64,000 bases of DNA from Dehalococcoidia bacterium (GCA_030615625.1 JAUWYX010000004.1:76708-140707); one strand, 5' to 3'. Counted from the stretch's first letter, positions 21,401-50,230 are shown. The notes: generated from the letters alone by a model not told the origin. Translations and numbers: made by a program.

Positions 21401-21433
21401 TGTTTAGAGCTTAGATATTGGGATTTTATTCTA

Positions 21434-23008: not shown

Positions 23009-24187
23009 TCATTCCAATGTAGGCAAGTCTTTGCTTAGCTCAGCCAGGGATGCAATCCTCTTCTTAGTTTGCTCTAGCTGTCCCTTATGTTCTTTGGCAT
23101 ACTGCGTAGCTTGCTCGTAAAAGTCTTTTATCCTGGGCACAAAGGATAACTGGGATAATATCAAGGTAACGTCGATAAAGTGCCTTTCTCCGGGAAAATC
23201 GCCACCTCGAATCAGGGCGTTGGATGCCAGCTCTTTGATATAATCGCTGATGCTCTTGACCATGTCCATATTCAGATCTCTTTCCGGGCCAGATATGATA
23301 TATATAGCTTTGCCGGCATCCTTAGGGTCACAAGTGAGGGAAAGGTCAGAGATGGTGGCGTCCAAGGCTTGTGTCCCTCTGAAGCTTTCCAGAGCTTTGT
23401 CGCGGAAAGTCTTCTTCCTTATCTCCCAGGGGAAGCGGAATGAGGGAAGCTCAGTTCTCCCCAGGCCAATGGTGGTCCACCCCTCCAGGCTGGCAATTAT
23501 GTCCCCGGCGTCTATCGTCCGCGAACCCACATATTTGGCCTTGGTTACCTCACCGGCACACATTAAATCATAGAAGGGCTCGGCAATCATCCTGTTTATT
23601 CTATCTATGTTACTAACGAGACTGGCATCCTTTCTTACATACCTCTGGTTATCAGCGAGAAAAATGGCATCCACTACATCATAAGTGGATTTCAGACAAG
23701 TAGCGGTGTTATATGTACTCCTGGACTCTGTGGTCTGTTCGTGCTCAAAAGGCAAAATTACCAGGGCATAAACCGGCTTGCTGATGTATCTATCCTTAAC
23801 TGCCCGGGCTATTATGGGCAGCGCTCCCGACCCAGTGCCGCCGGCAGCGCCAGCGATAAGAAAAAAGGCATGTGTCTCGTAAAACTGGGGGGTAGCTTTC
23901 ACGGCATCCAGTACCTTATCACTGTCCTCCTTGGCCAATTGAGCTCCTAGCTCGTTTATCTTGCCTACCCCGTGTCCCAGGGTCTGGCGCAAGCCCAGGA
24001 GCACCCGGTGCGTGTAGTCGTCCTTGATAAACCTTAGGCCGGTCAAATCTGCCTGGTCTGTATTCACGGCAATGACTGTGGGGGCTATGGTGGCCTTGCG
24101 TTGACCACGCGCCTTGAAATTTAGCCTGGCAAAGTGGTCAGCAATCCGGCAGCCACACTGCCCCAGTCCAATAACTGTTAACTTCAT
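23009..24187 (-). CDS. tubulin/FtsZ-family GTPase (tubulin-like signature)
   Basis: N-terminal VIGLGQCGCRIAD and a T4-loop AGAAGGTGSG; 392 aa. Confidence 0.55.
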   Translation of the reverse strand: MKLTVIGLGQCGCRIADHFARLNFKARGQRKATIAPTVIAVNTDQADLTGLRFIKDDYTHRVLLGLRQTLGHGVGKINELGAQLAKEDSDKVLDAVKATPQFYETHAFFLIAGAAGGTGSGALPIIARAVKDRYISKPVYALVILPFEHEQTTESRSTYNTATCLKSTYDVVDAIFLADNQRYVRKDASLVSNIDRINRMIAEPFYDLMCAGEVTKAKYVGSRTIDAGDIIASLEGWTTIGLGRTELPSFRFPWEIRKKTFRDKALESFRGTQALDATISDLSLTCDPKDAGKAIYIISGPERDLNMDMVKSISDYIKELASNALIRGGDFPGERHFIDVTLILSQLSFVPRIKDFYEQATQYAKEHKGQLEQTKKRIASLAELSKDLPTLE

Positions 24188-24316: not shown

Positions 24317-24367
24317 GTAGTGCGACCCTTCAGGGTCGTGCAGCACGAGGCCAAAGCTTCGCACTAC
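24317..24367. repeat. REP palindromic element (family A)
   Basis: gtagtgcgacccttcagggtcgtgc...cacgaggc.aaagc.tcgcactac, with terminal inverted repeat gtagtgcga/tcgcactac. Confidence 0.8.
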
Positions 24368-27659: not shown

Positions 27660-27850
27660 ACTAAAAAGTAAATGCCGTATTGACTAAATTCCAAAATCCA
27701 AACTCTAAACAAGTCCAAATATCAAAATTCAAATCTCTAAACAATGACAAAGATCAAGCGTCAAATCAAGCCCAAAATCCAAATGACAAAACGAAGTAGT
27801 TTTGACATTTAATCATTTGGATTTCAGTTGTCATTGGGATTTTGAAATTT
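27660..27850. repeat. family-C variant (ccaaat-type) palindromic element
   Basis: Arms ccaaaatccaaatgacaaaacg ... cagttgtcattgggattttg. Confidence 0.5.
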
Positions 27851-27893: not shown

Positions 27894-27930
27894 GAGATTG
27901 CTTCGCCCCGACTTGTCGGGGCTCGCAAAT
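27894..27930 (-). repeat. family-B palindromic element (reverse orientation)
   Basis: gagattgcttcg-ccccgacttgtcgggg-ctcgcaaatg. Consensus: gtcattgcgagc-[GC hairpin]-g(t/a)(a/g)gcaatctc. Confidence 0.7.
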
Positions 27931-28082
27931 GTAGTGCGACCCTTCAGGGTCGTGCCGCCCTTTGCACGAGGCTAAAGCCTCGCACTACAGTTTTATGCCT
28001 TTGCACTGGATTTTGTAGTGCGACCCTTCAGGGTCGTGCCGGCCCTTGCACGAGGCTAAAGCCTCGCACTACAGGCTGTAAA
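27931..28082. repeat. two REP elements (family A) abutting the RAYT 3' end
   Basis: Copies at 27931-27988 and 28015-28082. Confidence 0.8.
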
Positions 28083-28551
28083 TGGTTTCTAATTCAAATG
28101 AGCCTGAATAGGGATAGCTGCTACAATCCTCTACCATCCCCTTCCTGACAGGGTTTTGGATTATATATCGGGCTACAGCCCTGGTGGCTTCATCGTTTCT
28201 CAACACATGTTCGTAATAATTTGCCCCCCATAACTGCACACCATAAATGCCTTTGAACCAATAAGCAGTTTTCTGTTTGAACAAGGTGACAAAGTCCTTC
28301 ATATCTGCATTGCTATTCTTTCCTTCTATTAGCAGATGCACGTGATCGGGCATAAAGCAGTATGCCCAGACTAAGAAACTTTCCTGCTCACACGTACTCT
28401 TTAGAATCTCGATTACTTTGGCGACGACTTCATCATTCACGAAATGATGTTTAAAACCTTGTGAGCGTATAGTGATGAAATATCGATAATAACCGCGATA
28501 AGAAAAGCTCTTAAGTCTCCTTGGTTTTTCGTGTTCTCTGCTTGGCATCAC
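28069..28551 (-). mobile_element. REP-associated tyrosine transposase (RAYT, IS200/IS605 TnpA-like)
   Basis: 160 aa with an HuH motif (HVHLLIE) and a catalytic-Tyr region (YIIQNPV). Flanked on both sides by REP palindromes. Confidence 0.75.
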
Positions 28552-28585
28552 TGATATTGATCGATAAATTGTAACATAACCGTGT

Positions 28586-28985
28586 TGTAGTGCGACCCTT
28601 CAGGGTCGTGCCGCCCTTTGCACGAGGCTAAAGCCTTGCACTACATTGTTTGTGCCGTTTATGTGGGTATCGTAGTGCGACCTTTTAAGGTCGTGCCATC
28701 CCTTGCACGAGGCTAAAGCCTCGCACTACATGTTTGTGCCATTTATGTGGGTATCGTAGTGCGATCCTTCAGGGTCGTGCCGCCCTTTGCACGAGGCTAA
28801 AGCCTCGCACTACATTGTTTGTGCCGTTTATGTGGGTATCGTAGTGCGACCTTTTAAGGTCGTGCCATCCTCATGCACGAGGCTAAAGCCTCGCACTACA
28901 TTGTTTGTGCCGTTTATGTGGGTATCGTAGTGCGACCTTTTAAGGTCGTGCCATCCTCATGCACGAGGCTAAAGCCTCGCACTAC
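28586..28985. repeat. tandem array of five REP elements (family A) with identical 27-bp spacers
   Basis: Units at 28586, 28681, 28756, 28841 and 28927. The spacer attgtttgtgccgtttatgtgggtatc recurs between units. Confidence 0.85.
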
Positions 28986-29089
28986 ATTAGAATGACAATA
29001 GTCAAAGAAAGGGGGAGGGGCGGCTTGTGGCCGCCCCTCCTAGGAATCACCTTTACCTCTCCCTTAAGAGAGGGTCAGGTGGGGTGTGC

Positions 29090-32684: not shown

Positions 32685-32746
32685 GTAGTGCGACCCTTCA
32701 GGGTCGTGCCCTTTTTATTCTGCACGAGGCTAAAGCCCCGCACTAC
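32685..32746. repeat. REP element (family A)
   Basis: Same consensus as the other family-A copies. Confidence 0.8.
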
Positions 32747-32809: not shown

Positions 32810-32845
32810 GAGATTGCTTCGTCGCCTTCGACTCCTCGCAATAAC
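32810..32845 (-). repeat. family-B element (reverse orientation)
   Basis: gagattgcttcgtcgccttcgactcctcgcaataac. Confidence 0.6.
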
Positions 32846-32957: not shown

Positions 32958-32985
32958 TCGCACGAGGCTAAAGCCTCGCACTACA
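32958..32985. repeat. partial REP element (3' half)
   Basis: Only cacgaggctaaagcctcgcactac is present. Confidence 0.6.
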
Positions 32986-33353: not shown

Positions 33354-33411
33354 GTAGTGCGACCTTTTAAGGTCGTGCAATGGCCTGGCACGAGGCTGAA
33401 GCCTCGCACTA
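33354..33411. repeat. REP element (family A)
   Basis: gtagtgcgaccttttaaggtcgtgc...cacgaggctgaagcctcgcactac. Confidence 0.8.
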
Positions 33412-33459
33412 CAAATTTAGCGGTGTGGGACAAAAATCCCTTGCTAAATTAGAACATAA

Positions 33460-33831
33460 GTGCTAATTTATACTCAACATGGAAGAAAGATTCGGCGAAG
33501 CCGAATGGGTAATGAGGAACGGAATATGGAAAGTAAATTGATGTGGGATTTATTGCCCGAGGAATTCCACTACGAAGATAAGGGTTGTGAGCTCTTTTCC
33601 TCCTGTCTTAACTGCCCCTTTCCTGATTGCCTTAAAGAAGAGCCCTGGGGGAAGGAGAGGTTCTTAAAGAGCAGGCGAGCCGAGAGGATGATGGAGTTGA
33701 AACGAGAAGGGAAAAGCGTTAAGGAGATTGCCCGCATATTTGAGGTGAGCCCGAGAACGGTGCAGAGATGGCTGAAGGCGGTGGAAGAAGCCTCGCAAAA
33801 TCAAAAATCAAAATGCAAAGTACAAAAGTAA
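33460..33831 (+). CDS. small Cys-rich HTH DNA-binding protein (possible small terminase/regulator)
   Basis: CxxC...CPFPDC cluster and a C-terminal HTH (KSVKEIARIFEVSPRTVQRWLK). First gene of the phage-like module. The last roughly 13 codons derive from a family-C repeat. Confidence 0.5.
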   Translation: MLIYTQHGRKIRRSRMGNEERNMESKLMWDLLPEEFHYEDKGCELFSSCLNCPFPDCLKEEPWGKERFLKSRRAERMMELKREGKSVKEIARIFEVSPRTVQRWLKAVEEASQNQKSKCKVQK

Positions 33832-33880
33832 ATTTTTGGGTTTTGCTCTGTAATTTTGATATTTAACTTTTGATCCTTGA
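33790..33880. repeat. family-C element overlapping the 3' end of the HTH gene
   Basis: Arms caaaatcaaaaatcaaaatgcaaagtacaaaag ... gctctgtaattttgatatttaacttttgatcc. Confidence 0.6.
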
Positions 33881-35390
33881 ACTGTTTTTAGAGATGACTG
33901 ACTTTAACCCATCCCATCTGAACCGCATGGACACCCAGCGCCTCGCCGCTTACCGCTCCAACCTTGATTTCTACCAGGGCACCCACTGGCCCACGCAGTC
34001 ACGCCACCGTCAGCTTGTCTTTAACTACGCTAAGGTATCCATAGACAAGCTAACCAGCTTCCTTATGCCGGGACTCGGCTTCGCCTGTTATCCCGTAGCC
34101 GACGTTGCCAGCGATAGCGAAGCAATCGAAGCCAGAGTAAGGCGAGCCGAGCAACTCCTTCGCCAGGTATATGAGCAGAACAACCTCCAGCAGCTCGATT
34201 ACGAGACCGAGATTGACACCGCCGTCTTGGGAGACGGCTGCTACAAGGTGATGTGGGATACCGAAGAGAAGCGTATCCGTATCACCGCCCCCGATGTCTC
34301 AGGCATCTATGCCTGGTGGCTTGGAGATGACACCTCGCGGGTCTGGAGGATAGCTTCAAGATACACGCTTACCTGGGATGAAATCCAGATGCTTTACGGT
34401 GATGTCATTGCGAGCGTAGCGAAGCAATCTCAGGGGATTGCCACGTCGCCCCGATTCATCGGGGCTCCTCGCAATGACGGAGGGACGTCATTGCGAGGCA
34501 CGCCAGTGCCGAAGCAATCCCAAGGAAAGAACAGAGTCGTGGTAACCGAGCTCTGGACGGATAAGGCCTTTGACCTTTACCTGGACAACGATCTCATAGG
34601 GTCCAGACCCAATCCCTATGGCTTTATCCCCTTTATCATCTTCCCCAACATCAGGGACCCCAAGCACTTCTGGGGCGTATCGGATATCCCCAGCATCATC
34701 CAGCCCCAGCGGGAACTCAACCGGGCCTTGAGCCAGCTATCCCGCATCCTGGAGCTGTCAGGCAACCCCATCGCCGTCCTGGAGAACATCGCATCAGCTG
34801 AGGACATCAAGGTCCAGCCCGGGGCCCTGTGGACCATACCGGAGGACGCTAAGGCTTATCTTCTGGACTTACTGCAAGGCGGCGGAGTCAGACTTCATGT
34901 CGATTATATCGATTTGCTATACCGTGCCCTGCACGATGTATCGGAGATGCCCCGGGCTGCCTGGGGAGGCATCGAGAAGGAGTTCTCAGGCACCGCCCTG
35001 AGGATTGAGCTCGGCAGCCTCATTCAGAAGGTGGTGCGAAAACGCACCATCAGGACCAATGTATACCACCAGCGTAATGCCATGATATTAAAGCTGGCTG
35101 AAATGTTTATGAACGAGAACTTTGAAGGAGTGAACCATAGAGTGGTCTGGGGTCCCATCCTGCCTCAGGATATAGATAGGCAGGCCCAGACCGAGCAGCT
35201 CTTGGTCCAGGCGGGAGTCCACAGCCGGAGGACCGCTATGGACGAGATGGGTGTCCAGGACCCCGACGAGGAGTTCAACAGGTGGCTGGAGGAGAGGGAG
35301 AGGATACTACAGATGAATCAGGAGTTCAGGGCAACATCCACACGTGGCGGAGCGAGAGAGAGCGGTAGCCGCGGAGATGGAAGTGCCTGA
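33870..35390 (+). CDS. phage portal protein
   Basis: 506 aa, sized and positioned upstream of scaffold and capsid genes. Contains three in-frame family-B repeat insertions (34414-34520). Confidence 0.6.
   Translation: MILELFLEMTDFNPSHLNRMDTQRLAAYRSNLDFYQGTHWPTQSRHRQLVFNYAKVSIDKLTSFLMPGLGFACYPVADVASDSEAIEARVRRAEQLLRQVYEQNNLQQLDYETEIDTAVLGDGCYKVMWDTEEKRIRITAPDVSGIYAWWLGDDTSRVWRIASRYTLTWDEIQMLYGDVIASVAKQSQGIATSPRFIGAPRNDGGTSLRGTPVPKQSQGKNRVVVTELWTDKAFDLYLDNDLIGSRPNPYGFIPFIIFPNIRDPKHFWGVSDIPSIIQPQRELNRALSQLSRILELSGNPIAVLENIASAEDIKVQPGALWTIPEDAKAYLLDLLQGGGVRLHVDYIDLLYRALHDVSEMPRAAWGGIEKEFSGTALRIELGSLIQKVVRKRTIRTNVYHQRNAMILKLAEMFMNENFEGVNHRVVWGPILPQDIDRQAQTEQLLVQAGVHSRRTAMDEMGVQDPDEEFNRWLEERERILQMNQEFRATSTRGGARESGSRGDGSA
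34414..34520 (+). repeat. three family-B elements (forward, reverse, forward) inside the portal ORF
   Basis: Copies at 34414-34441, 34449-34478 (reverse) and 34497-34520. All are translated in-frame (VIASVAKQSQG...SPRFIGAPRND...SLRGTPVPKQSQ). Confidence 0.75.
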
Positions 35391-35409
35391 ATAATAAGCT
35401 CACCCCCTT

Positions 35410-35439
35410 GTCATTGCAAGGCGAAGCCGAAGCAATCTC
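35410..35439 (+). repeat. family-B element (intergenic)
   Basis: gtcattgcaaggcgaagccgaagcaatctc. Confidence 0.7.
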
Positions 35440-35459
35440 AAGAGGAATAGGAGAAATGT

Positions 35460-35963
35460 ATGGAAAACGAAAACGAGGAAACCCAGGAAACCCCTGCCCT
35501 GAGCGAAGTCGAAGGGACCAATGAGGTTTCCACCCCCGGGGACCTGGAGGCGATCACGGCACAGCTCGAGGAGGAAAAGAAGGCCAAGGCCGCCGCTGAG
35601 GCAGCCCTGGCCGAGAAGGATGCCCGCATCGCCGAGCTGCAAGCCGAAGGCGAAGCATTGCGAGCCGAAGGCGTGGCAATCTCTGAAGCCCACGCTCAGG
35701 CCGTCACCAAATACCTCGATGCCGTCAGGGCTGCTAATCCCACTATTCCCCGGGACATCATCGCCGGCGGCACCATCGAGGACATAGACGCCTCGGTCGA
35801 GAAGGCTCAGTCCATCGCCAGCGCTGTCAGGCAGTCCTTAGAGGCTGAGGCCAAAGAGGCTAAGGTCCCCGCGGGAGCACCAGCCAGGGGCGAGATATCC
35901 CTTGAGGGCTTAACCCCCAGGGAGAAGATCGCCGCTGGAATACAACAAGGAAGTCAAGGATAA
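35460..35963 (+). CDS. phage scaffolding-like protein
   Basis: 167-aa acidic Ala/Glu-rich coiled-coil protein between portal and capsid. Contains an in-frame family-B copy (35655-35683). Confidence 0.5.
   Translation: MENENEETQETPALSEVEGTNEVSTPGDLEAITAQLEEEKKAKAAAEAALAEKDARIAELQAEGEALRAEGVAISEAHAQAVTKYLDAVRAANPTIPRDIIAGGTIEDIDASVEKAQSIASAVRQSLEAEAKEAKVPAGAPARGEISLEGLTPREKIAAGIQQGSQG
35655..35683 (+). repeat. family-B element inside scaffold ORF
   Basis: gcattgcgagccgaaggcgtggcaatctc, translated as ALRAEGVAIS. Confidence 0.7.
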
Positions 35964-36050
35964 AAATGCAAAACGCAAAAATACAGGGCAAAAATCAAAA
36001 ATTTTTCGTTTTGCTTTGTCATTTTGGTCTTTTATCTTTGATTTTTAATT
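35957..36050. repeat. family-C element between scaffold and capsid genes
   Basis: Arms aaaatgcaaaacgcaaaaatacagggcaaaaatcaaaaat ... tttgctttgtcattttggtcttttatctttgatttttaatttt. Confidence 0.7.
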
Positions 36051-36066
36051 TTGAACAGGAGGAAAT

Positions 36067-37140
36067 ATGAGTATATCTTTAGCAGAAGCAAGTAAGCTCT
36101 CGACCGATATCCTGCTTAAAGGAATCATCGAGACCATCGTCAAGGGCAGCCCCATCTTACAGGAGCTGCCCTTCATCCAGATCGTGGGCAATAGCCTGAA
36201 GTACAACCGGGAGAAGACTTTGCCCACCGTGGCCTGGTACTCCCCGGTAACCGACACCTGGACGACCTCTGAGCCGGCTTTCGAGCAGTGCTCTGCCAGC
36301 CTCTGCGTCCTTGGCGGAGACGCCGATGTTGACAACTTCCTCAAGGCCACCAGGAGTAATATCCAGGACCTCGAGGCCGCTGTCATCGAACAGAAGGCCA
36401 AGGCCTTGAGGAACGAGTTTGAGAACACCTTCCTGAACGGCGACTCGAGTGTGGACGCCAACCAACCCGATGGTCTGTATAAGACCATGAAGGGCACAGC
36501 CTGGGAGGCCACTACTGCCTATTCCCTGGGTGACATCGTCGTCCCCACTGCTGGCAAGGAGAATGGCTTCCGTTACGAGTGCACCACCGCCGGCACTTCT
36601 GGCTCAACAGAGCCCACTTGGAAGACTACCGAGGGAGAGACCAACTCCGACGGCACCGTCGTCTGGACCTGCCGGCTCGGCAACCACCTCGGCATGGCAG
36701 CGAACGGCGCCACCCTTGCCCTCGGCAAAATCGACCAGCTCATTGACCTGGTCAGAGGGGGCAAGCCCGACCTGCTCTTAATGAGCCGCCGGTCCCGGAG
36801 GAAGATCGCAGCCTTAGCCAGAGCCGCTGGATCCAATCTTCAAGTCGGACAGGGTAAGCTCGGCGAGTTCGTCGAGCTCTATAACGGCATCCCCGTCGCC
36901 ATCTCCGACTGGGTCAAGGACAACTACACCGTGGGCACGTCCAGCGATTGTTCGGCCATGTTCGCCTTCCAGATGGGAGAGGGCGCCGTCTGCGGTCTTA
37001 CCAGCCCCGAGGTGATTCAGGTCGAGCGTCTCGGCTCCCTGGAGACCAAGGACGCTTCCCGGACCAGGGTCAAGTGGTATGTATCACTGGCAAACTTTTC
37101 CATCGTCAAGGCCGCCATGCTGACAGGAGTGAGAGACTAA
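36067..37140 (+). CDS. phage major capsid protein (HK97-fold family)
   Basis: 357 aa beginning LSTDILLKGIIETIVKGSPILQELPFIQ, typical of Phage_capsid family members. An AGGAGG RBS sits at 36057-36062. Confidence 0.7.
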   Translation: MSISLAEASKLSTDILLKGIIETIVKGSPILQELPFIQIVGNSLKYNREKTLPTVAWYSPVTDTWTTSEPAFEQCSASLCVLGGDADVDNFLKATRSNIQDLEAAVIEQKAKALRNEFENTFLNGDSSVDANQPDGLYKTMKGTAWEATTAYSLGDIVVPTAGKENGFRYECTTAGTSGSTEPTWKTTEGETNSDGTVVWTCRLGNHLGMAANGATLALGKIDQLIDLVRGGKPDLLLMSRRSRRKIAALARAAGSNLQVGQGKLGEFVELYNGIPVAISDWVKDNYTVGTSSDCSAMFAFQMGEGAVCGLTSPEVIQVERLGSLETKDASRTRVKWYVSLANFSIVKAAMLTGVRD

Positions 37141-37160
37141 TGTCCATGCCAGGCAGGAAT

Positions 37161-37199
37161 GTCATTGCGAGCCCCGATTTATCGGGGCGTGGCAATCTC
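37161..37199 (+). repeat. family-B element (intergenic, full length with inner hairpin)
   Basis: gtcattgcgagc-cccgatttatcgggg-cgtggcaatctc. Confidence 0.8.
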
Positions 37200-37233
37200 C
37201 TGGCGTGCGTTTCAACCTCCTTTGTATCGAGGC

Positions 37234-37260
37234 GGGAGGGGGAAGGTCGAGCCCCCTCCC
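37234..37260 (+). terminator. GC-rich stem-loop downstream of capsid gene
   Basis: gggaggggg-aaggtcgag-ccccctccc forms a perfect 9-bp stem, but no U-tract follows. Confidence 0.3.
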
Positions 37261-37298
37261 TACCTCAGTGCGCATCGATGCGTATTGCGAGGTGAACC

Positions 37299-37889
37299 GT
37301 GAACTTAACCGAAATGAGAGCCCGGGTCCGTGAGGACCTCCAGGACACCGACAGCCAGAACTACCGCTGGACGGACGATGAAGTAGACGGAGCCATCGAG
37401 AGGGTTGTCATGGAGTACTCCCTCCATGCCCCTATCGAGCAGCAGGATGATATAGCCACCACCGACGGAGATACTGAGCTCGATATCTCCTCCCTCACAG
37501 GCTTGCTCAAAATCGAGTCAGTCGAGTTCCCTATCGGCCAGGCTCCTAAATATCTCCAGCGGACCGAGTACTGGGCCGGCCACTTTTATATGGAGGACGA
37601 AGGTGACGGAGAAGACGCCCGTGTAAGATGGCTTAAGAAGCACACCCTGGACGCCGAGTTCACCACCATCCCCGCCGAGCACGAGGAGATTATCGTTTTG
37701 GGCGCCACTGGCTACCTGGCCATGTCGGCAGCCGCTTATACTGTGGACAGGGCCAGCATCGCCGGCCGCCACGCCACCATCAACTACAAGGCCTGGGGCA
37801 AGGAACGGCTGAGCCGCTACGACAAGAAGCTTAAGCAGATTGCCCAGGGAAACCGAGTAATCCAGAGGCAGCTCTACACCGAAGATTAA
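37299..37889 (+). CDS. phage head-tail connector-like protein
   Basis: 196 aa. The N-terminus (MNLTEMRARVREDLQDTD...DDEVDGAIERV) resembles gp6-type connector/adaptor proteins. Confidence 0.4.
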   Translation: MNLTEMRARVREDLQDTDSQNYRWTDDEVDGAIERVVMEYSLHAPIEQQDDIATTDGDTELDISSLTGLLKIESVEFPIGQAPKYLQRTEYWAGHFYMEDEGDGEDARVRWLKKHTLDAEFTTIPAEHEEIIVLGATGYLAMSAAAYTVDRASIAGRHATINYKAWGKERLSRYDKKLKQIAQGNRVIQRQLYTED

Positions 37890-37980
37890 AATGCAAAATG
37901 AAAAGAGCGAAAACACAGAGCAAAAATCAGAATCTTTACATTTTAATCTGTCATTTTGATTTTTGACTTTTGAGGTTTGA
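37890..37980. repeat. family-C element
   Basis: Arms aaaatgcaaaatgaaaagagcgaaaacacagagcaaaaatcag ... attttaatctgtcattttgatttttgacttttg. Confidence 0.7.
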
Positions 37981-37983
37981 TTT

Positions 37984-38193
37984 ATGTTGGAAGTCGGCAT
38001 CCTCAAAAACTTCGACGGGGGTACCTACAAGGCCGGCGTTCAGCTCGCAGGGTCCTTGACTACCTATTTCGACAACCTTAATGTCGCCCGGAATATTGCC
38101 TCGGCCGAGATGGTAACCGGCCGCCACGTAATCCTGGCGATCCCCGAGGGAAACCCAAGGGACGCCGTAGTCATCGCAGTATTCACCGTATAA
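37984..38193 (+). CDS. hypothetical phage-module protein
   Basis: 69-aa ORF inside the structural cluster. Confidence 0.35.
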   Translation: MLEVGILKNFDGGTYKAGVQLAGSLTTYFDNLNVARNIASAEMVTGRHVILAIPEGNPRDAVVIAVFTV

Positions 38194-38202
38194 GGAGGAA
38201 CC

Positions 38203-38547
38203 GTGCCTAAATCAAGAGTAAAGGAAGCAGTAGAAAAAGAGAAGACCAAAGAGGGACTACCCAGGGAAGCCTTCGCCATCGTCGGCGACCCCCAGGATCC
38301 TGAGACCTGGAAGCTCCCCCACCACACCAGGGCCATCATGCGCGCCCTCCAGGGAAGGCTCGATATCGAGAGGACCGTGGACTGGGACCGCATGCCTGCA
38401 GCCGTCGCCGCCCTCAGCCGGGGCGGTTACCGCGGGGAGAGGGTCCAGGCCTCAGAGGAGGACATCATCCAGGCCGCCCGGCATTTAGCCAGGCACTATG
38501 AAAAGGCTGGGAAGTCCGTCCCCGACACCCTGGGCGCCCTGATTTAA
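38203..38547 (+). CDS. hypothetical phage-module protein
   Basis: 114-aa ORF. Confidence 0.4.
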   Translation: MPKSRVKEAVEKEKTKEGLPREAFAIVGDPQDPETWKLPHHTRAIMRALQGRLDIERTVDWDRMPAAVAALSRGGYRGERVQASEEDIIQAARHLARHYEKAGKSVPDTLGALI

Positions 38548-38650
38548 CATAACCATACTCAGGAACGAAACCCATGAGTGTAATAAGTGGCAAAAGGGGA
38601 AAGAGGGGCTTTCTCGAGCCTCTCAGAGCCTGTTCAGCAAAGGAGGAAAC

Positions 38651-38884
38651 ATGCCGGAGGAACAGAACAAAGCTAGTCCCAACCTCGTGACGGTCTTTTG
38701 CGATTTTTTCCGAGCCGCCACCAGGCCTGTTGTTACCGTCATTTTCGCCGCCGTCATCGCCCAGGTCGTCATCGACAGAATCGACGCCCCCCAGTGGTTC
38801 CTGGGCCTGGCCATCCCAATAATTGGCTGGTGGTTTACCGAGCGGACGGTGCAGCACATCAAGGAGAAGAAGGAGCAAAGCTAA
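38651..38884 (+). CDS. small two-TM membrane protein (holin-like)
   Basis: 77 aa with two hydrophobic helices and a charged C-terminus. Confidence 0.35.
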   Translation: MPEEQNKASPNLVTVFCDFFRAATRPVVTVIFAAVIAQVVIDRIDAPQWFLGLAIPIIGWWFTERTVQHIKEKKEQS

Positions 38885-39135
38885 TGCCTCGAGACGAGGA
38901 CAAGGGATTCCTGAAAGGCCTTAACATTCACGGCTTCATGGACGTCTACCAAGAATGGCACGCCTTCGTCAATGGCTTTTGCGAGGTCCTTTGCCCCTGG
39001 CGGGCGAAGTATGAACCCTCCGAAGAATTACTAAATGACTTGAAGGGGGATCATCATTACTATATGTTCGGCCGAGCCATCGGCGTCATCGCCTGGCTCA
39101 TCATCGCTAAAATCATCAAGGAGGTCTTCTTTTAA
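38885..39135 (+). CDS. small membrane protein (C-terminal TM)
   Basis: ATG at 38885 abuts the stop of the previous gene. 83 aa ending GVIAWLIIAKIIKEVFF. Confidence 0.35.
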
Positions 39136-39773
39136 TGGCTAAATCAGGAATTAAGCACATAGACGTCGGCCTCGAGCTCACCAAGACGGAGTGGGAGAGC
39201 GAGGAGAGCCACGAGCTCATTCACGGCAATAGCTTCCCGTCCTCGCCCGTCGAACGTCAGCTCTTCTACCGGGACGACGAGCATAAATGGTATATCTACA
39301 ACGGTTCGGCCTGGGTTGACCTTCAGGGTACTGGCGGCGGAGTCATGGACAAGTCTTGCCGGGTTCACCATTCCACAGACCAGACACTACCAACTGGCAC
39401 CGTGGTATTCTCTGCTTTTGATACTGAGGTCTGGGACACCGACGAAATACACGACACCGTCACCAATAATAGCCGGCTAACCTGCAAGACAGCAGGCAAG
39501 TATATGATTGCTGGCGGCGGTCAGTTTGTTGCCAACGCCACAGGAAGACGGCATGCTCAAATCAAGCTGAATGGGACTACGGTCATAGCTGGACAGCACT
39601 TTCAGGCGGTGACTGATAGCGGTGGTGTTACCAGCCTTACAATAGGTACCATTTATAGCTTGGCTGTGAACGACTATGTGGAGCTAGGATTTTATCAAGC
39701 ATCTGGAGGAGACTTGGATTTGCAGGGTGGGCAGATATACTCCCCCTGGTTTAGTATGGCAAGGATAGCATGA
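39135..39773 (+). CDS. phage fibre/receptor-binding-like structural protein
   Basis: 212-aa Gly/Thr-rich beta-type sequence (GGGQFVANATG...). Its start overlaps the stop of the previous gene. Confidence 0.35.
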   Translation: MAKSGIKHIDVGLELTKTEWESEESHELIHGNSFPSSPVERQLFYRDDEHKWYIYNGSAWVDLQGTGGGVMDKSCRVHHSTDQTLPTGTVVFSAFDTEVWDTDEIHDTVTNNSRLTCKTAGKYMIAGGGQFVANATGRRHAQIKLNGTTVIAGQHFQAVTDSGGVTSLTIGTIYSLAVNDYVELGFYQASGGDLDLQGGQIYSPWFSMARIA

Positions 39774-41854
39774 GAACCCTGACTGCTACCTTGGAAGCTG
39801 TCCAGAAGAAGCCCCACCGCCTACCCTACGTCGAAGCCGAAGTCTATGACTACGAGCAGGGTATTAAACGCCTCACGTGGACACGCATCTATACCGGCAG
39901 CGAGCCCGACAATCATCACGGTCTCACCTTCGATGGTAACGGCGATATGCACCGCATCCGGGTAGAAGGCAGCAACCTTTACTATCAGAAGCTCTTCTCC
40001 CCCTTCAACGCTCCCCCTTCGTTTCCTCTTTCCTTCCCCATCTCCCTCGTTTCTTGGTTCGATGAATGGGAGCTCATAGCCACCGACTATGCCGGTTCCT
40101 GTGCCATCGCCGCCTGTGGAGCCAAGGTCTATATCTTCTACCGCACCACCGGCAACGTCCTCTGGAAGTATTATAGCCATGACTACGGCGACACCTGGGA
40201 TGACGCCCAGCTCGTTGACTATGCCGACGTCCTTTCTATGGCTGCGTGCTGGTGGGGGATCGGCGACATCGTCGTCTGCTTCGCCCTTAAGTCCAACGAG
40301 CTTAACGGCATAACCCTGGACACCAGCACCCAGGAAGCCACTCAACACACCTGGACCGACGCCAACCATCCCTTGCTCAGTATCTACGGCATCGGCGCTA
40401 CTTTCAACGCCTTCTGGCCATGCTGCGAGATAGTCCTTGCTGCTAAGGAGTCCGACACCCCCTATAATCACTTCGATCTATTCCGTACCTGGTTTTTGGA
40501 TACCTACAACTTTGGTGCCCTCGAGAGCTTCCTTATGTCCCCGGACGGAGAAGATATCACCTATGAATACCCCGACTGCCACCTGCCGGCATCGGCCCAG
40601 AGCTACGAGACGAACCGTATCATCGCTGTAGAGAAGTTCGCAGGCACCACCGCCTACACCCGTCCCCTCGCTTGCCTCATGGTAAAAGGCACGTATTGGA
40701 GCGATACGACCTTTACCGAGCCTAAGCCCTTCCTGGACGTCAGCCCGGCCTATGGGCTCAGAATCGCCAGCACTGCCGACTATTGGTGGCTGGAAAAGCC
40801 CGACGGAGTCTGGAGAGCCCCCCGCCCCGCCGACTCGCCCCTCGACTTGACCAAGGACATCGTGACATTGCAAACAAATGTCATTGCGAGCCCGACTTCA
40901 GTCGGGCGTGGCAATCTCGTACTGGAGCTCGATAACTCCAAAGGCCAATATAACGTAGGGGAGGGTCTTGTACCCTCCCTCATTAACAAGCGCAGCGAAA
41001 TCGTCCTCAAGCTCGGCTATAAGACGACGGCAGGCAAGGAGACCTCCGAGGCCGGCACTTACTGGGTGGATTCCTGGGAGTACTCCTCCAAGCCCAACAT
41101 GTCCCGCTTCATCCTCACCTGCCTGGACGGCTGGGGCCTCATGGACCGCTGGACCGCCCGATACCAGATGAGGTGGAACAAGGACGAAGTCAACCCCAAG
41201 AGCGTCTGGCAGATCCTTTACCAGCTCTTAGCCCGTGCCGGCATCAAGCTCACCAACACCCCCGCCAAACCCCAGTCCTCCGCCATTAACAACTTCTACC
41301 CCGACTTCACCGTCAACCCTGGCACTCAGGGAGACACCGCAATACGCAAGCTCCTATCGTTCGTCCCCGACAAACTCATATTCCGTGGCCAGGAGGCCTT
41401 CACCAAGAACCCACTGGCCAGCGAGGAAAGCTGCTACTCCTACGGCACAGGCCACGCCATCCTCAGCGGTAAATACATCGAGGCCGTCACCGTCTCCCGC
41501 GCCCGGGCCATCGGCCGGGACAGCGGCGATAACCGCATCCTGGAAGAAGCCCTGGACTGGGACTTACTCGCCCTGGCCATTGACCAGCTCGAGCAGGACT
41601 ATGACCCCAACCTCCAGACCGCCACCAGGGCCCAGGAGAGGGCCGACGCTCTCTTAAGAGAGGCGTCATTGCGAGCGCAGCGCGGCAACCTCGTAGTCCC
41701 CACCAACTGTGGTCAGGAGCTCCTCGATGTCGTCGAGGTCACCGACGAGCGCTGCGGCATCTCGGAGGAGAAGTATAGGGTCGAGGCCATCCAGACCGAT
41801 TACGACCGCCGCCAAGGAATTTACACTCAGCGTCTGGCGCTCTGTGCCCCATGA
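39770..41854 (+). CDS. large phage structural protein (tail/baseplate or tailspike-like)
   Basis: 694 aa with a BNR-like YGDTWDD motif. Contains two in-frame family-B insertions (40880-40918, 41665-41692). Confidence 0.4.
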   Translation: MRTLTATLEAVQKKPHRLPYVEAEVYDYEQGIKRLTWTRIYTGSEPDNHHGLTFDGNGDMHRIRVEGSNLYYQKLFSPFNAPPSFPLSFPISLVSWFDEWELIATDYAGSCAIAACGAKVYIFYRTTGNVLWKYYSHDYGDTWDDAQLVDYADVLSMAACWWGIGDIVVCFALKSNELNGITLDTSTQEATQHTWTDANHPLLSIYGIGATFNAFWPCCEIVLAAKESDTPYNHFDLFRTWFLDTYNFGALESFLMSPDGEDITYEYPDCHLPASAQSYETNRIIAVEKFAGTTAYTRPLACLMVKGTYWSDTTFTEPKPFLDVSPAYGLRIASTADYWWLEKPDGVWRAPRPADSPLDLTKDIVTLQTNVIASPTSVGRGNLVLELDNSKGQYNVGEGLVPSLINKRSEIVLKLGYKTTAGKETSEAGTYWVDSWEYSSKPNMSRFILTCLDGWGLMDRWTARYQMRWNKDEVNPKSVWQILYQLLARAGIKLTNTPAKPQSSAINNFYPDFTVNPGTQGDTAIRKLLSFVPDKLIFRGQEAFTKNPLASEESCYSYGTGHAILSGKYIEAVTVSRARAIGRDSGDNRILEEALDWDLLALAIDQLEQDYDPNLQTATRAQERADALLREASLRAQRGNLVVPTNCGQELLDVVEVTDERCGISEEKYRVEAIQTDYDRRQGIYTQRLALCAP
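40880..40918 (+). repeat. family-B element inside 39770-41854 ORF
   Basis: gtcattgcgagcccgacttcagtcgggcgtggcaatctc, translated as VIASPTSVGRGNL. Confidence 0.8.
41665..41692 (+). repeat. family-B element inside 39770-41854 ORF
   Basis: gtcattgcgagcgcagcgcggcaacctc, translated as SLRAQRGNL. Confidence 0.7.
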
Positions 41855-42102
41855 CAAATTATTGGGAATGTTTAGTAGCGTCATTCTGGGGAGTCCAAAT
41901 GAATTTAGATGATGAAGCATCTCGGAAATTCTTCGCGGAGCCTGTCCTGAGCGGCACAAGATTCTTCGGTAGTGGGTCAATTTGAAAATGGTAAAAGTCT
42001 TTGAACTATCCTGAAATGAAGACAATGGCTTGACAAATAGTCAAGTTGTGATATAATAAAAGCAGTTATCACTATGAAAAGAGGCGACGTAGGGTTTTGT
42101 CC

Positions 42103-42624
42103 CTACGAAGTCTCTTTTCGGTTATATAGATCTCTCATGATATCATCTAAGTAGAATATCCGTATTTTAGTATGTAGTTTTCTGAGCAGATAGGAACATC
42201 CACCTCTACTACAAGCTATTAGGCATTCTAGTTTACCCTTATCGTGTAGGTATTCGACTAAACAAGCATAATCACCGTCGCTTGCTATTATTACTGCCTT
42301 TGCATAATTTTCATAATCCACCATAGACTGCAATGTCAGATTTACGTCTACGTTACCTTTAATTTCATCTTCGTGGGTAGCTACTTCTTTAAATTTCAAT
42401 TCATATCCTTGTCTTCTTAACTGGTCATATAAACTCTTGTATTCCGGTACATAACCAATAAAATAATAGGCAACCTTAACAGCATGTTTTTCCATAAGAT
42501 AGACTCGGAATTCATTCAAATCTAATTTTACCTCAAGCGCTTCAACTTCTTTTTCAAGTGATTGGAGTGATTTGTAAAAGTTCTGACCATCAATGAAGGC
42601 ATAATTCGCTGGCACTTCATGCAT
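42103..42624 (-). CDS. NYN-domain (LabA-like, PIN-fold) protein
   Basis: An N-terminal AFIDGQNF motif and internal IIASDGDY acidic residues, as in NYN RNases. Confidence 0.6.
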   Translation of the reverse strand: MHEVPANYAFIDGQNFYKSLQSLEKEVEALEVKLDLNEFRVYLMEKHAVKVAYYFIGYVPEYKSLYDQLRRQGYELKFKEVATHEDEIKGNVDVNLTLQSMVDYENYAKAVIIASDGDYACLVEYLHDKGKLECLIACSRGGCSYLLRKLHTKIRIFYLDDIMRDLYNRKETS

Positions 42625-42753
42625 AATCTATCAACCTCACAATTTCTTCTATTGTCCAAATGTGATTAGCTAACCTGGCTGCCATTGCTGGTGTCTTTGG
42701 ATAAGGATTATTTAAAGCCTTGTGTGGCCTAGCGAAGTTGCGAAGTGGATTTC

Positions 42754-43314
42754 TCATGGGCTACTAATTAATGCTTGCTTCAAATCATCGAGCCTTGGGG
42801 TAAAATCTTCAACGAGCCCCTGGCGGGCTACTTGCCATTTGTGGCTAACTTCGATATTGATAGCATCCACTGCTGTTCCTGAGATTCTCAATTGGTGCAG
42901 GGTTTCCCTGTAGTTGCTTTCTAGTTCCTGTCTTATCTTTTGTTCTGCCCCTTCATATTCTTGAACAAGCTGGCCTATTTCTTCTGCCTTTGGCTGCAAT
43001 TCAGGCCCTAAGCTGCTTATCACCTCGATTACCCTTTTCACGCTATTTATACCCAGGGTAGTTGTAAGCTCAATAGCCTCTGCGAGGTGCTCGATCACGG
43101 CCTGCTTTATTATTGTTCTCTCCTTTTCTTCGTGCTTGTTTAGCTCCGCAGGCATATCCAGTTTTTGGGAACCGTCCAGCCATTTTTGTGCCAGCACCTG
43201 ACCGATTTGGCGATACCTTTGTCTTTCTTGCTGTTCCTTTTCCTCGACTGACAGCTTGCCCAATCTATTTGCTTTCTCTTGAGCAATTTCCCAGGCACTC
43301 TTTAGCTCACCCAT
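42754..43314 (-). CDS. hypothetical protein
   Basis: 186-aa helical, Glu/Gln-rich ORF. Confidence 0.4.
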   Translation of the reverse strand: MGELKSAWEIAQEKANRLGKLSVEEKEQQERQRYRQIGQVLAQKWLDGSQKLDMPAELNKHEEKERTIIKQAVIEHLAEAIELTTTLGINSVKRVIEVISSLGPELQPKAEEIGQLVQEYEGAEQKIRQELESNYRETLHQLRISGTAVDAINIEVSHKWQVARQGLVEDFTPRLDDLKQALISSP

Positions 43315-43333: not shown

Positions 43334-43362
43334 GCCGTTGCGAGCCGAAGGCGAAGCCACCT
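43334..43362 (+). repeat. degenerate family-B element (intergenic)
   Basis: ccgttgcgagccgaaggcgaagccacctc. Confidence 0.5.
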
Positions 43363-43495
43363 CACATCCCCATTCCTTTAGATTGCTTCAGCACTACCGG
43401 GCTTCGCGATGATAGGGTAGCGACATTATTAGCGTTAACAGTGCATTTTAGCCTATAATATTGACGGGGTTCAACAAAGTGAGTTTGGGGTTATA

Positions 43496-45989: not shown

Positions 45990-46023
45990 GTCATTGAGAA
46001 GGGCGAAGCTTCGAAGCAATCTC
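45990..46023 (+). repeat. family-B element (intergenic)
   Basis: gtcattgagaagggcgaagcttcgaagcaatctc. Confidence 0.65.
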
Positions 46024-50191: not shown

Positions 50192-50230
50192 GTCATTGTG
50201 AGTCCCGATTTATCGGGACGAAGCAATCTC
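50192..50230 (+). repeat. family-B element (intergenic, full length)
   Basis: gtcattgtgagtcccgatttatcgggacgaagcaatctc. Confidence 0.8.

Follow-up and report, generated by a model that had tools for sequence, protein, structure and literature searches.

The DNA analysed here, a stretch of 64,000 nucleotides from a Dehalococcoidia bacterium that we call the window, contains a phage-like module on its plus strand. The portal gene (33870..35390; SPP1 gp6-like, matching Pfam PF05133 at 3.5e-20) is followed by a coiled-coil gene (35460..35963), named scaffold-like from its position and composition only, the major capsid gene (36067..37140; phrog_212, 7e-59) and a gene for a 694-aa structural protein (39770..41854) that may be tail-like; an SU10-like adaptor was also identified in the module with Pfam and PHROGs. 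Located 5 kb upstream is a gene for a REP-associated tyrosine transposase (RAYT; 28069..28551, minus strand), which scored 93.2 bits against NCBIfam NF047646 (cut-off 80) and matched Pfam Y1_Tnp at 4e-12. Arrays of GTAG REPINs (GTAGTGCGACCCTTCAGGGTCGTGC ... GCACGAGGCTAAAGCCTCGCACTAC) lie on both sides of it, together forming a REPtron (27926..28988), and belong to a family distinct from the repeat studied here.

The Family B Element

This repeat, family B, is 28–45 nt long and has the consensus (T/C)GTCATTGCGAG-variable hairpin-G(A/T)(A/G)GCAATCTC, in which the conserved arms (T/C)GTC-ATTGC-GAG and G(A/T)(A/G)-GCAAT-CTC flank a central hairpin. Allowing up to two mismatches, we found 19 matches to GTCATTGCGAGC in the window against 5.0 ± 2.3 expected, a number that none of 100 shuffles reached, and the two-arm pattern CATTGCGAG-N(4–34)-GCAATC gave six exact matches with none expected. 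Looser motif scans of the window returned 10 clear copies, two with a mismatched 5' arm (27894–27932, minus strand, and 45990–46023) and one degenerate copy (43334–43363), about 13 in all, in line with the at least 13 occurrences reported in the initial annotation.

The central hairpin keeps its pairing and not its sequence. Among 22 independent copies, 90.5% of cells were paired, compared with 71.8% in shuffles, and the covariation score was 0.449 versus 0.129; none of 500 shuffles reached the observed score, slid controls gave at most 0.136, and six of the seven inner pairs showed two-sided change. The copies fold as DNA at −11 to −12 kcal/mol, with z scores of about −3.5 to −3.8.

Copies in and Around the Module

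The portal, scaffold-like and 694-aa tail-like ORFs together contain seven in-frame copies, of which one is degenerate. Six had been placed correctly beforehand (three in the portal, one of these inverted, one in the scaffold-like gene and two in the 694-aa ORF), and we added the degenerate seventh. All host ORFs are open, so that no frame is broken, and the same 5' arm is indeed read as either V-I-A-S or S-L-R; for the 3' arm, each of the three frames is used (KQSQ, GNL and AIS). The single open reverse frame claimed earlier had to be corrected to two of three through the conserved arms (..LAMT and ..ARND), both of which are used in other contigs.

Four of the copies are in the portal. Copy 1 (34404..34431, plus strand) is a short form with a GCGTAGC mini-hairpin, read VIASVAKQSQ, and forms a tail-to-tail dimer with the inverted copy 2 (34434..34478, minus strand; central hairpin CCCCGATGAATCGGGG, read GIATSPRFIGAPRND); for copy 2, the filled locus L023 was compared with the single-copy loci L029 and L080. 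Copy 3 (34487..34521, plus strand) is read SLRGTPVPKQSQ, its 5' arm in a different frame from that of copy 1; compared with L003 and L033 it adds 54 nt, bordered on each side by GACA, and it is missing in L009 and L001, both 95% identical. The three copies fold together at −36 kcal/mol (z = −5.1). The degenerate copy (34101..34129, plus strand; read VASDSEAIE) marks a second insertion site, at which orthologues are empty (CYP-GEETDELKARV), carry a clear family B copy read as GVIASDSEAIK, or carry one in another frame (LSLRGAQRRSNL).

In the portal-scaffold spacer, a copy with the outer arms CCCCCTT and AAGAGG (35410..35439, plus strand) has orthologues bearing three different central hairpins, and the empty orthologous site reads CTCAAACCAAGGAG. 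The scaffold copy (35654..35683, plus strand; 5' arm AGCATTGCGAG, read EALRAEGVAIS) is a 42-nt insertion with GCC on each side, as judged from filled L015 and L022 against empty L018 and L055. The copy 21 nt past the capsid stop codon (37161..37199, plus strand; central hairpin CCCCGATTTATCGGGG) folds as DNA at −11.6 kcal/mol (z = −3.5). Orthologues of the 694-aa gene have at least six insertion sites. The copy at site 1 in the window (40880..40918, plus strand; read VIASPTSVGRGNL) is absent from L027, L030, L006 and L031, and other orthologues have other palindrome families there. At site 2, the family B-like segment (41665..41692, plus strand; read SLRAQRGNL) corresponds in orthologues to other sequence of equal length, the alternatives being TRAQEANPAAIT and TQQTQRTPATIV, with a hybrid in L079.

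The remaining copies in the window are intergenic. Motif scans located one upstream of the module (32810..32845, minus strand), one with the mismatched 5' arm GTCATTGAGAAG (45990..46023, plus strand) and the degenerate, B-like one (GCCGTTGCGAGCCGAAGGCGAAGCCACCTC; 43334..43363, plus strand). Another (27894..27932, minus strand; 5' arm ACATTTGCGAG) adjoins the first GTAG REPIN of the REPtron, and the last (50192..50230, plus strand) has the central hairpin TCCCGATTTATCGGGA.

Insertion Polymorphism

Of 89 orthologous loci compared at the portal hotspot, 46 have no insert, copy 1 included, while the others are longer by 6 to 168 nt, every time by a multiple of three. In the portal, scaffold and tail genes, the insertions add 8–56 amino acids. 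Relatives at 52–59% identity are all empty; conservation of the peptides in distant homologues free of the repeat was the outcome that the initial annotation had named as fatal to its proposal of peptide insertion resembling that of Rickettsia palindromic elements (RPEs). This comparison of orthologues indicates that the portal insertions are lineage-specific gains and that the empty state is ancestral. The expectation that the inserts would appear as lineage-specific indels held for the portal (including the 54 nt of copy 3) and for the 42 nt in the scaffold-like gene, but not for 41665–41692, which is a same-length replacement. A second lineage (L116 and L193) has acquired a differently arranged family B dimer in the same portal loop.

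Clean filled/empty pairs show ambiguous junction repeats of 2–4 nt. Insertion points inside the portal hotspot differ by several codons. At least four other palindrome families, GTAG REPs among them, share the tolerant loops with family B: a 27-nt CCTGCCCGCC..GGCAGGCGGG palindrome is cleanly inserted in L028 relative to L026 and is also found nested in a family B loop, and GTAG-type REPs and the GTCATTCTGAG family occupy intragenic hotspots in orthologues. No palindromic insertion was seen in the major capsid gene among 52 orthologues or in the adaptor gene among 50.

Three observations fit poorly with simple cut-and-paste or copy-and-paste. Insertions are usually accompanied by altered flanking codons, the arms at one orthologous site are constant around a wholly different central hairpin, and the segment at site 2 of the 694-aa gene takes the place of an unrelated one.

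Genomic Distribution

Family B is very abundant in this Dehalococcoidia lineage, with approximately one copy per 2.2 kb of the related loci examined. About half of all copies are intergenic, and rather than an excess within ORFs we observed a 6- to 8-fold enrichment in intergenic over coding DNA, a figure to be read with the counts across loci being nonindependent, as many copies are orthologous, and the gene calls crude. The window alone has 8 of its 13 copies in the module. Across 38 related loci there is no module-specific enrichment, the module having 0.42 copies/kb and its flanks 0.41/kb. Copies in frame are also found in the neighbouring gene for a 1150-aa surface protein, in a cellular gene of 215 aa and, in other viral contigs, in terminase, capsid and lectin-like genes and in unrelated portal-MuF fusions, every time in the inter-domain linker. 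The earlier idea that the element targets virion genes was not supported, given these densities, the intergenic enrichment, the cellular in-frame copies and the lack of copies in capsid and adaptor; the pattern fits tolerance and selection rather than targeting.

The arms cross phyla: contigs carrying them range in G+C from 0.32 to 0.68, they turn up in replicons of Novosphingobium, cyanobacteria and Methylosinus, and CGTCATTGCGAGCGCAGCGAAGCAATCCA is present at no fewer than 40 places in Novosphingobium pSA1.

Origin and Maintenance of the Copies

We consider it likely, with a probability of about 0.75 for the explanation as a whole, that family B is a non-autonomous, REP-like dispersed palindrome that is gained genome-wide at the DNA level and survives within genes only at tolerant, in-frame sites. 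Copies would arise mostly between genes, and those persisting in genes would be the ones that add a multiple of three, bring no stop in the frame used and fall in a loop or linker tolerant of extra residues. Such a filter would let a few portal, scaffold and tail-like sites collect copies, frequently stacked or nested with other palindromes, leave the capsid and adaptor without any and allow others in neighbouring cellular genes. Mobilisation may occur in trans, with an HUH/Y1 (RAYT-like) transposase or some other enzyme specific for hairpins acting on single-stranded DNA, and the central hairpin could be renewed where it stands, through template switching or inter-copy conversion. We found no transposase associated with family B: GTAG REPINs, and not family B, flank the single RAYT of the window, and tblastn with that RAYT found no homologue in about 2 Mb of related loci. 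As a selfish repeat, family B is a further, well-documented case of an established type and does not represent a novel type of system.

An unlikely alternative is that the hairpins are selected for a function where they stand, as mRNA stabilisers or terminators after the portal and capsid genes, translational pause sites in ORFs or a DNA packaging signal. Sense copies do lie 20–21 nt 3' of the portal and capsid stop codons, the coding strand holds seven of the eight module copies, compensatory changes keep the hairpins paired, and published REPs are often found 3' of ORFs and thought to act as RNA (PMC3733652). However, a sense bias within ORFs is expected because one reverse frame has a TGA, and intergenic copies in independent contigs show no bias (48 sense, 47 antisense), which favours an element at the DNA level over an RNA function tied to one strand. 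Close relatives also differ in the presence of copies, as L009 does for copy 3, the same loops accept unrelated palindromes, and the only Rfam match in the window is a tRNA.

Rather less probable is site-directed exchange of cassettes at hairpin sites, attC-like or by template-switch conversion, that would diversify exposed loops, above all in the tail-like protein. It would account for the 10 or more distinct insertion events within one portal loop, the equal-length alternatives and the hybrid at site 2 of the 694-aa gene, the central hairpins swapped between constant arms at orthologous sites, one flipped loop (GATTTATC vs GATAAATC) and a mini-palindrome, CCCGAY-N-RTCGGG, found with several arm families as well as by itself in frame. 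Against it, the shifting insertion points reveal no fixed target, similar events occur in spacers and in the portal loop, which would gain nothing obvious from being diversified, no dedicated enzyme was seen within the cluster, and tolerance with a high genome-wide insertion rate suffices.

It is very improbable that the ORFs with inserts are pseudogenes decaying in a defunct prophage, where insertions would meet no constraint; disrupted pseudogenes were the second outcome that the initial annotation had named as refuting. In this lineage the cluster lacks integrase, lysis and replication genes, and 11 kb separate the terminase gene from the portal, but frames are intact in at least 80 orthologues, at least 200 portal residues are invariant, the capsid and adaptor are insert-free and the portal-hotspot insertions keep to multiples of three. 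Values of dN/dS of 0.1–0.33 in six module genes (0.11–0.33 for the portal, about 0.2 for the 694-aa gene), out to dS of about 1, indicate purifying selection; the module genes are therefore not pseudogenes and their products are probably functional, and at the level of sequence evolution this alternative is already refuted. Still less credible, and already largely refuted, is an origin of the repeat from the genes, with the peptides ancestral in the portal and tail proteins and gene fragments making up the dispersed copies: orthologues with and without the element are equally long at site 2 of the 694-aa gene, and a mini-hairpin-like palindrome (CCCGAYGTRTCGGG) encodes the conserved APDVSG motif of the portal, yet the portal hotspot is empty in 46 orthologues and all distant relatives, and the same arms are found between genes, in unrelated genes, across a wide range of base compositions, and in Alphaproteobacteria and Cyanobacteria. 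Repeat-induced chimeras are the least plausible source of the inserts, since, although the data are wholly metagenomic and the element highly repeated, assemblies of independent projects (the window, L001 from NCBI, L009 and L011 from JGI) share the same arrangements with ordinary point divergence, and the inserts keep frame and nest consistently with the gene phylogeny.

Relation to Known Repeats

RPE-1, the subject of Ogata et al. in 2000, is reportedly a selfish palindrome restricted to Rickettsia, approximately 100–150 bp long and adding 30–50 residues as one unit. Family B is likewise a selfish palindrome lying in frame in functional genes that tolerate the added peptide, but its sequence is unrelated. 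Cyanobacterial small dispersed repeats, treated by Elhai et al. in 2008, are said to be 21–27 nt long, palindrome-containing, mobile, intragenic and mutually nested; family B differs from them in sequence and is similarly very small, palindromic, intragenic and nested, and we know of no description of conserved arms around a variable hairpin for those repeats.

By its defining features, family B belongs, as a Dehalococcoidia representative, to a superfamily already published, that of the CGTC/TGTC-tagged REPs, which includes RPE-4 and RPE-6 of R. conorii and Neisseria dRS3 (Di Nocera et al. 2013, PMC3733652); the statement that it is unrelated to RPEs was thus mistaken for the short RPEs, with which it shares superfamily features. 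As in those repeats, one end of the short palindrome is tagged CGTC, often TGTC, the stem begins with A-T and T-A pairs, and a short 3' tail is unpaired; copies are numerous, form dimers and clusters, have no dedicated transposase and occur in several phyla (PMC3733652). Intragenic REPs had already been described, and here too in-frame copies code for 8–30 residues and are sometimes stacked (PMC3733652). The Novosphingobium copies have the exact CGTC tag and CCA tail, and the Rickettsia CGTC-1 peptides VIPAKAGI, SFPRKRES, CHSRESGDP and ..RND parallel VIAS.., SLR.., CHCE.. and ..ARND of family B. Unlike CGTC-tagged REPs, Dehalococcoidia copies have mostly a TGTC tag (67–73%) and a CTC tail, a stem interrupted by a conserved GAG/GAA internal loop and a hypervariable inner hairpin of 3 to more than 30 nt. 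Their dimers are mostly tail-to-tail (85, vs 37 head-to-head), whereas those of CGTC-tagged REPs are mainly head-to-head, and they lie in phage-derived structural genes, whereas the published intragenic cases are mostly in replication and repair genes (PMC3733652).

GTAG REPs and REPINs are mobilised by RAYT (Nunvar 2010; Bertels and Rainey 2011, PMC3116915; Ton-Hoang 2012). Family B shares with them the hairpin, a conserved tetranucleotide at the stem foot, inverted dimers and clusters, but it lacks GTAG and the RAYT is not flanked by it. Bacterial MITEs inserted in frame (Delihas 2008, PMC2229807; Coxiella MITEs, PMC5896051) are also non-autonomous, lie within genes and contribute coding sequence; they are longer (usually >50–100 bp), with terminal inverted repeats matching an IS and defined target-site duplications, whereas the 28–45 nt of family B are bounded by only the short ambiguous junction repeats.

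Family B Copies Within Structural Genes

The palindromic repeat family B was found in frame in three genes of the phage-like cluster, and the six copies described in the initial annotation all lie where it had placed them: three in the portal gene (34404-34431 and 34487-34521 on the plus strand, 34434-34478 inverted), one in the scaffold gene, and two in the 694-aa protein (site 1 at 40880-40918 and site 2 at 41665-41692). To these we add a seventh, degenerate copy in the portal (34101-34129). The two readings proposed for the 5′ arm, VIAS and SLR, both occur in the ORFs, and the 3′ arm is translated in all three frames. In the window, 19 sites match GTCATTGCGAGC with at most two mismatches against 5.0 ± 2.3 expected, and the two-armed pattern has six exact matches with 0 expected; looser scans bring the total to approximately 13, in line with the at least 13 copies originally counted.

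A search for portal homologues returned 3801 matches of 451-533 aa from Dehalococcoidia and other Chloroflexota at 72-95% identity, and in the protein alignment the length variation was confined mainly to one spot, from ..LYG to KKQAAITELWTDK. At the DNA level, this hotspot was empty in 46 of 89 loci, held one to three family B copies in 30, and contained other palindromes in 13, the added length ranging from +6 to +168 nt and being a multiple of three every time. One portal loop has 0 to 56 extra residues among close relatives, with the remainder of the portal almost invariant; this is a natural experiment on the load of foreign sequence that virion proteins can absorb, and it marks permissive portal sites that could be usable for engineering. 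Since relatives of just 52-59% identity all have an empty hotspot, the empty state is ancestral, which runs counter to the alternative raised at the outset, that the repeat arose from the gene and its peptides are kept in distant repeat-free homologues. A separate lineage (loci L116 and L193) carries its own, differently arranged family B dimer in the same loop.

Filled and empty versions could be paired for the scaffold copy (+42 nt, GCC at both junctions) and for the third portal copy, at 34487-34521 (+54 nt, GACA at both junctions), and a 27-nt palindrome of another family is present in L028 at a site that is empty in L026. Site 1 of the 694-aa protein (VIASPTSVGRGNL) is missing in L027, L030, L006, and L031, and other lineages have GTAG-type or other palindromes there in place of family B. 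Copies are gained and lost between relatives, and in the loops that hold them at least four further palindrome families are stacked and nested with them. Except at site 2 of the 694-aa protein, the blocks thus behave as the lineage-specific indels that had been anticipated, and the portal and scaffold copies, judged from these alignments, are insertions and not ancestral gene sequence.

Genomic Context and Constraint of the Host Genes

The cluster includes an HTH protein (33460-33831), an SPP1-type portal (33870-35390; PF05133, 3.5e-20; phrog_64, 1e-29), a coiled-coil scaffold-like protein (35460-35963), a major capsid protein (36067-37140; phrog_212, 7e-59), and an SU10-like adaptor (37299-37889), as well as several small proteins, a 212-aa virion protein, and the 694-aa protein, which has a weak tail match. 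Its chromosomal position is shared among related genomes, and in 23 of the 25 loci with enough sequence it is followed by the same cellular genes, at 86-95% identity. A terminase-like gene (21362-22807) directly abuts the portal in more distant relatives, whereas in the window it lies 11 kb upstream, with cellular-looking genes between; in L006, a tyrosine integrase is found just upstream of the terminase-like gene, beside ribosomal protein genes. Lysis and replication genes are missing from the cluster in the window (20897-41854) and in L005, L006, L058, L065, L073, and L076. The repeat-bearing genes are thus part of a phage-derived cluster, compact (~10-12 kb), long resident, and under purifying selection, and not of an obviously active phage. 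The cluster, known from sequences that are all metagenomic, could be a domesticated element resembling a gene transfer agent or a satellite; we found no paper on gene transfer agents in Dehalococcoidia in the literature searched.

Between the terminase-like gene and the portal, the minus strand encodes a tubulin/FtsZ-family protein with a CetZ-type C-terminal domain (23009-24187; Pfam 2.6e-32 and 8e-20) that is ~97% identical in nine loci; CetZ is usually taken as archaeal. An ~880-bp insertion (41880-42763) with an NYN-domain gene on the minus strand (42103-42624) is missing in L009, the closest relative, where the flanks are joined directly. AT-rich spacers of ~90 nt lie 3′ of the scaffold and adaptor genes (35961-36055 and 37890-37975; also 27660-27850) and are imperfect palindromes (AAAATGCAAAACG...CGTTTTGC...); BLAST of the two against each other gave no alignment, and a similar tract codes for the C terminus of the HTH ORF (..QNQKSKCKVQK).

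The dN/dS ratio was 0.11-0.33 for the portal, capsid, adaptor, 114-aa, and 694-aa genes, with dS up to ~1, and 0.26-0.39 for the scaffold except for one low-divergence pair at 0.75; the portal has more than 200 invariant positions among 36 sequences. Such ratios in these six module genes argue against disrupted pseudogenes, the other objection attached to the original proposal, and the insert-bearing genes are in all probability functional. All long indels of nine module genes were surveyed: palindromic inserts occupy three sites in the portal, one in the scaffold, and at least six in the 694-aa protein, with single cases in the 114-aa and 77-aa proteins and none in the capsid (52 orthologues) or the adaptor (50 orthologues). 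Random insertions passing through a selection filter would give this pattern. As the AlphaFold2 model of the portal, from 36 close homologues, had a mean pLDDT of only 39, and PDB sequences gave just one weak match, the gp45 portal of entry 9gb5, we infer from sequence variability and insert tolerance that the insertion sites may be surface loops.

Close to the portal stop, a (GA)n run (35352-35362) varies in length by lineage and swaps the last ~12 residues, the C terminus being either ..ESGSRGDGSA or ..RAVAAEMEVPE. A sequencing error was considered for the C-terminal frameshift and rejected, because the window shares its form of this length polymorphism with L009, L010, L027, and L080. In the capsid, residues ~135-202 (36470-36680) make up an inserted domain that matches the head-decoration family phrog_20658 (1.6e-14) and, weakly, the carbohydrate-binding CBM_5_12.

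Structure and Classification of Family B

The family B consensus is (T/C)GTC-ATTGC-GAG-[hairpin]-G(A/T)(A/G)-GCAAT-C(T/C)C, with a core of 28-45 nt; Dehalococcoidia loci totaling 961 kb hold 429 copies, and viral contigs totaling 1.03 Mb hold 272. Of 428 copies from the Dehalococcoidia loci, 311 have T 5′ of GTC and 80 have C; of 172 copies from independent viral contigs, 116 have T and 49 have C. Among 22 independent copies, the outer stem ATTGC/GCAAT is near-invariant, and the inner stem varies in sequence but stays paired: 90.5% of cells are paired vs. 71.8% in shuffles, and the covariation score is 0.449 vs. 0.129, a level that none of 500 shuffles attained (slid controls, ≤0.136). Folded as DNA, 39-nt copies gave approximately −11.5 kcal/mol (z ~ −3.5) and the triple of portal copies −36 kcal/mol (z = −5.1); short copies of 28-30 nt folded no better than shuffles (z −1.25 to +0.78). 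A broader GTC-N5-GAG..GAA-N5′-CTC superfamily with covarying outer stems was tried and discarded, as the strict pattern found only ATTGC (303/306).

Intergenic copies in independent contigs were unbiased in orientation with respect to the genes around them (48:47), and the Rfam covariance models at gathering score matched only a tRNA-Glu in the whole window and nothing in family B. On these grounds we rejected a strand-specific RNA function, and the same two results point to an element acting at the DNA level. Neighboring pairs were arranged tail-to-tail in 85 cases, head-to-head in 37, and head-to-tail in 20, counts that include orthologous, non-independent copies.

Family B arms are also present in cultured bacteria from other phyla: on Novosphingobium resinovorum pSA1, at 40 or more places, where the element reads CGTCATTGCGAGCGCAGCGAAGCAATCCA, forms inverted dimers, and has the tag CGTC; on plasmids of Nostoc, Brasilonema, Aulosira, Geminocystis, Methylosinus, and Methylobacterium; and in Helicobacter canis prophages. 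Di Nocera et al. 2013 (PMC3733652) describe a CGTC-tagged REP superfamily of 20-40 bp palindromes with high copy number, a terminal CGTC tag that is often TGTC and has CCTC as another variant, an 8-9 bp stem with A/T pairs at positions 1 and 2, a loop of 4-5 nt, and a short unpaired 3′ tail with the consensus CCA; its members occur in several phyla without a dedicated flanking transposase, and their dimers are mainly head-to-head. Family B resembles this superfamily in its small core, high copy number, and a tag that is mostly TGTC and sometimes CGTC; likewise, no Y1 transposase flanked by family B was seen in ~2 Mb of loci, a limited sample. It differs in the predominance of tail-to-tail pairs. 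Its outer stem opens with A-T and T-A but is broken by the conserved GAG/GAA internal loop, with a variable inner stem and loop length; copies from Dehalococcoidia and from viral contigs have the tail CTC or CCC, those from Novosphingobium CCA. The same paper lists Neisseria dRS3 and R. conorii RPE-4 and RPE-6 as members and already reports in-frame intragenic REPs, including dimers and clusters; the Rickettsia peptides given there (VIPAKAGI, SFPRKRES, CHSRESGDP, and ..RND) mirror those of family B. The initial annotation had called the family unrelated to the Rickettsia elements; the shared tag, A/T foot, spread over phyla, lack of a transposase, and mirrored peptides argue instead that family B is a new member of the CGTC-tagged superfamily, a placement made at superfamily level from the textual description of features. 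Intragenic REP behavior is thereby extended to Chloroflexota and to phage-derived genes, and one CGTC/TGTC-type family is seen to have identical 11-nt arms in Alphaproteobacteria, Cyanobacteria, and Dehalococcoidia. A full-text literature search with the motif and peptides gave chance primer matches only, and the literature searched yielded no account of palindromic repeats within portal genes.

RPE-1-type elements are palindromic units of ~100-150 bp found in frame in functional genes; family B shares this location but its unit is 28-45 nt. In GTAG REPs and REPINs, the hairpin has GTAG at its 5′ foot, and copies flank a RAYT (REP-associated tyrosine transposase) gene, whereas family B has no GTAG (consensus (T/C)GTCATTGCGAG), and the RAYT unit of the window is made of another repeat, one family B copy just abutting it. 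In MITEs, the terminal inverted repeats stem from an IS element and the target-site duplication is fixed, but in family B inversion is limited to the 5-bp ATTGC/GCAAT arms, the junctions carry repeats of only 2-4 nt that differ by event (GCC, GACA, CTCA), and no parent IS was seen.

Distribution Relative to Virion Genes

The targeting of virion structural genes proposed initially is not borne out by the counts: in 38 loci that include the complete module, family B occurs at 0.42/kb within it and at 0.41/kb in its flanks. Module-specific enrichment, suggested by 8 of the 13 window copies, was rejected across these loci, and the concentration in the window is a local feature. Coding sequence makes up 85-88% of the DNA, yet approximately half of the copies are intergenic, giving a 6- to 8-fold intergenic enrichment; the locus counts include orthologous, non-independent copies and crude gene calls, and the intragenic class is inflated by spurious repeat-made ORFs. 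True in-frame copies are also found in the adjoining ~1150-aa surface-protein gene and in a 215-aa cellular gene.

In IMG/VR, the pattern occurs in at least 120 contig stretches, the loci kept spanning a G+C of 0.32-0.68. Contigs unrelated to the module have in-frame copies in four portal-MuF fusions, every time in the inter-domain linker, and in three large terminases, one capsid, and one lectin-like protein. In-frame insertion is thus a general behavior of family B; the large ORFs of viral contigs are mostly such genes, and these cases are thus no proof of preference. Repeats of this kind may aid in linking viral contigs with their hosts. A fixed insertion target was also considered and rejected: the flanks are just G-poor, and the insertion points in the portal hotspot are several codons apart.

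Intergenic arrays of three to five family B copies in alternating orientation (L014, 4832-5137; L067, 2866-3204; L009, 801-1076) create stop-free spurious ORFs of 90-130 codons. They are a likely source of false "hypothetical proteins", and in metagenome annotation such repeats give spurious ORFs and inflate protein length variation.

Proposed Mobilization and Turnover in Place

A RAYT gene lies 5 kb upstream of the module (28069-28551, minus strand; NCBIfam REP_Tyr_transpos, 93 bits with a cut-off of 80; Pfam Y1_Tnp, 4e-12). Flanked by two and five tandem GTAG REPIN doublets with a period of ~85 nt, it forms a typical, complete REPtron (27926-28988), and further REPINs of its family are found at 24317-24367, 32685-32746, 32960-32984, and 33354-33412, all intergenic. 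In orthologues, GTAG-type REPs occupy the same intragenic hotspots as family B. A tblastn search with this RAYT found no further copy in the loci; a phmmer search with an approximate IS608 TnpA query found nothing, a worthless negative because it also missed the real RAYT identified by Pfam and NCBIfam. No enzyme could be linked to family B, the RAYT of the window being flanked by GTAG REPINs and not by family B. A hairpin-specific enzyme, of the HUH/Y1 type or another, may act in trans to mobilize family B on single-stranded DNA. We know of no transposase for CGTC REPs, and the question of which enzyme moves them is now sharper.

Simple transposition leaves several observations unexplained. 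In the orthologous portal-scaffold spacer, the arms are constant and the central hairpin is GGCGAAGCC, TCCCGATTTATCGGGA, or CCCTGAGCTCGGCGAAGGG by lineage; orthologous copies at site 1 of the 694-aa protein show compensatory changes and a flipped loop (GATTTATC vs. GATAAATC). The mini-palindrome CCCGAY-N-RTCGGG is found 73 times inside family B arms and 72 times outside, also within other arm families and alone in frame (VPIPSG). At site 2 (41665-41692), compared between the window and the orthologous positions in L010, L027, L067, and L079, the family B-like SLRAQRGNL alternates with the same-length but unrelated RAQEANPAA and QQTQRTPAT, L079 being a hybrid. Hairpin swaps, the flipped loop, the shared mini-palindrome, and the same-length site 2 point to turnover in place, which could proceed by template switching or by conversion between copies.

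A more active process of cassette exchange is unlikely. In its full form, with the conserved family B arms as a landing pad on which a hairpin-specific recombinase, or template switching, swaps small hairpin cassettes in situ, exploited or tolerated in the cluster to remodel exposed portal and tail loops, we regard it as a long shot; if true, it would mean palindrome-driven diversity of peptide loops inside working structural genes.

The invariant portal motif APDVSG (~34288-34303) is coded in many orthologues by CCCGAYGTRTCGGG, a palindrome of the CCCGAY-N-RTCGGG type, which could be a coincidence or a very old, fixed insertion.
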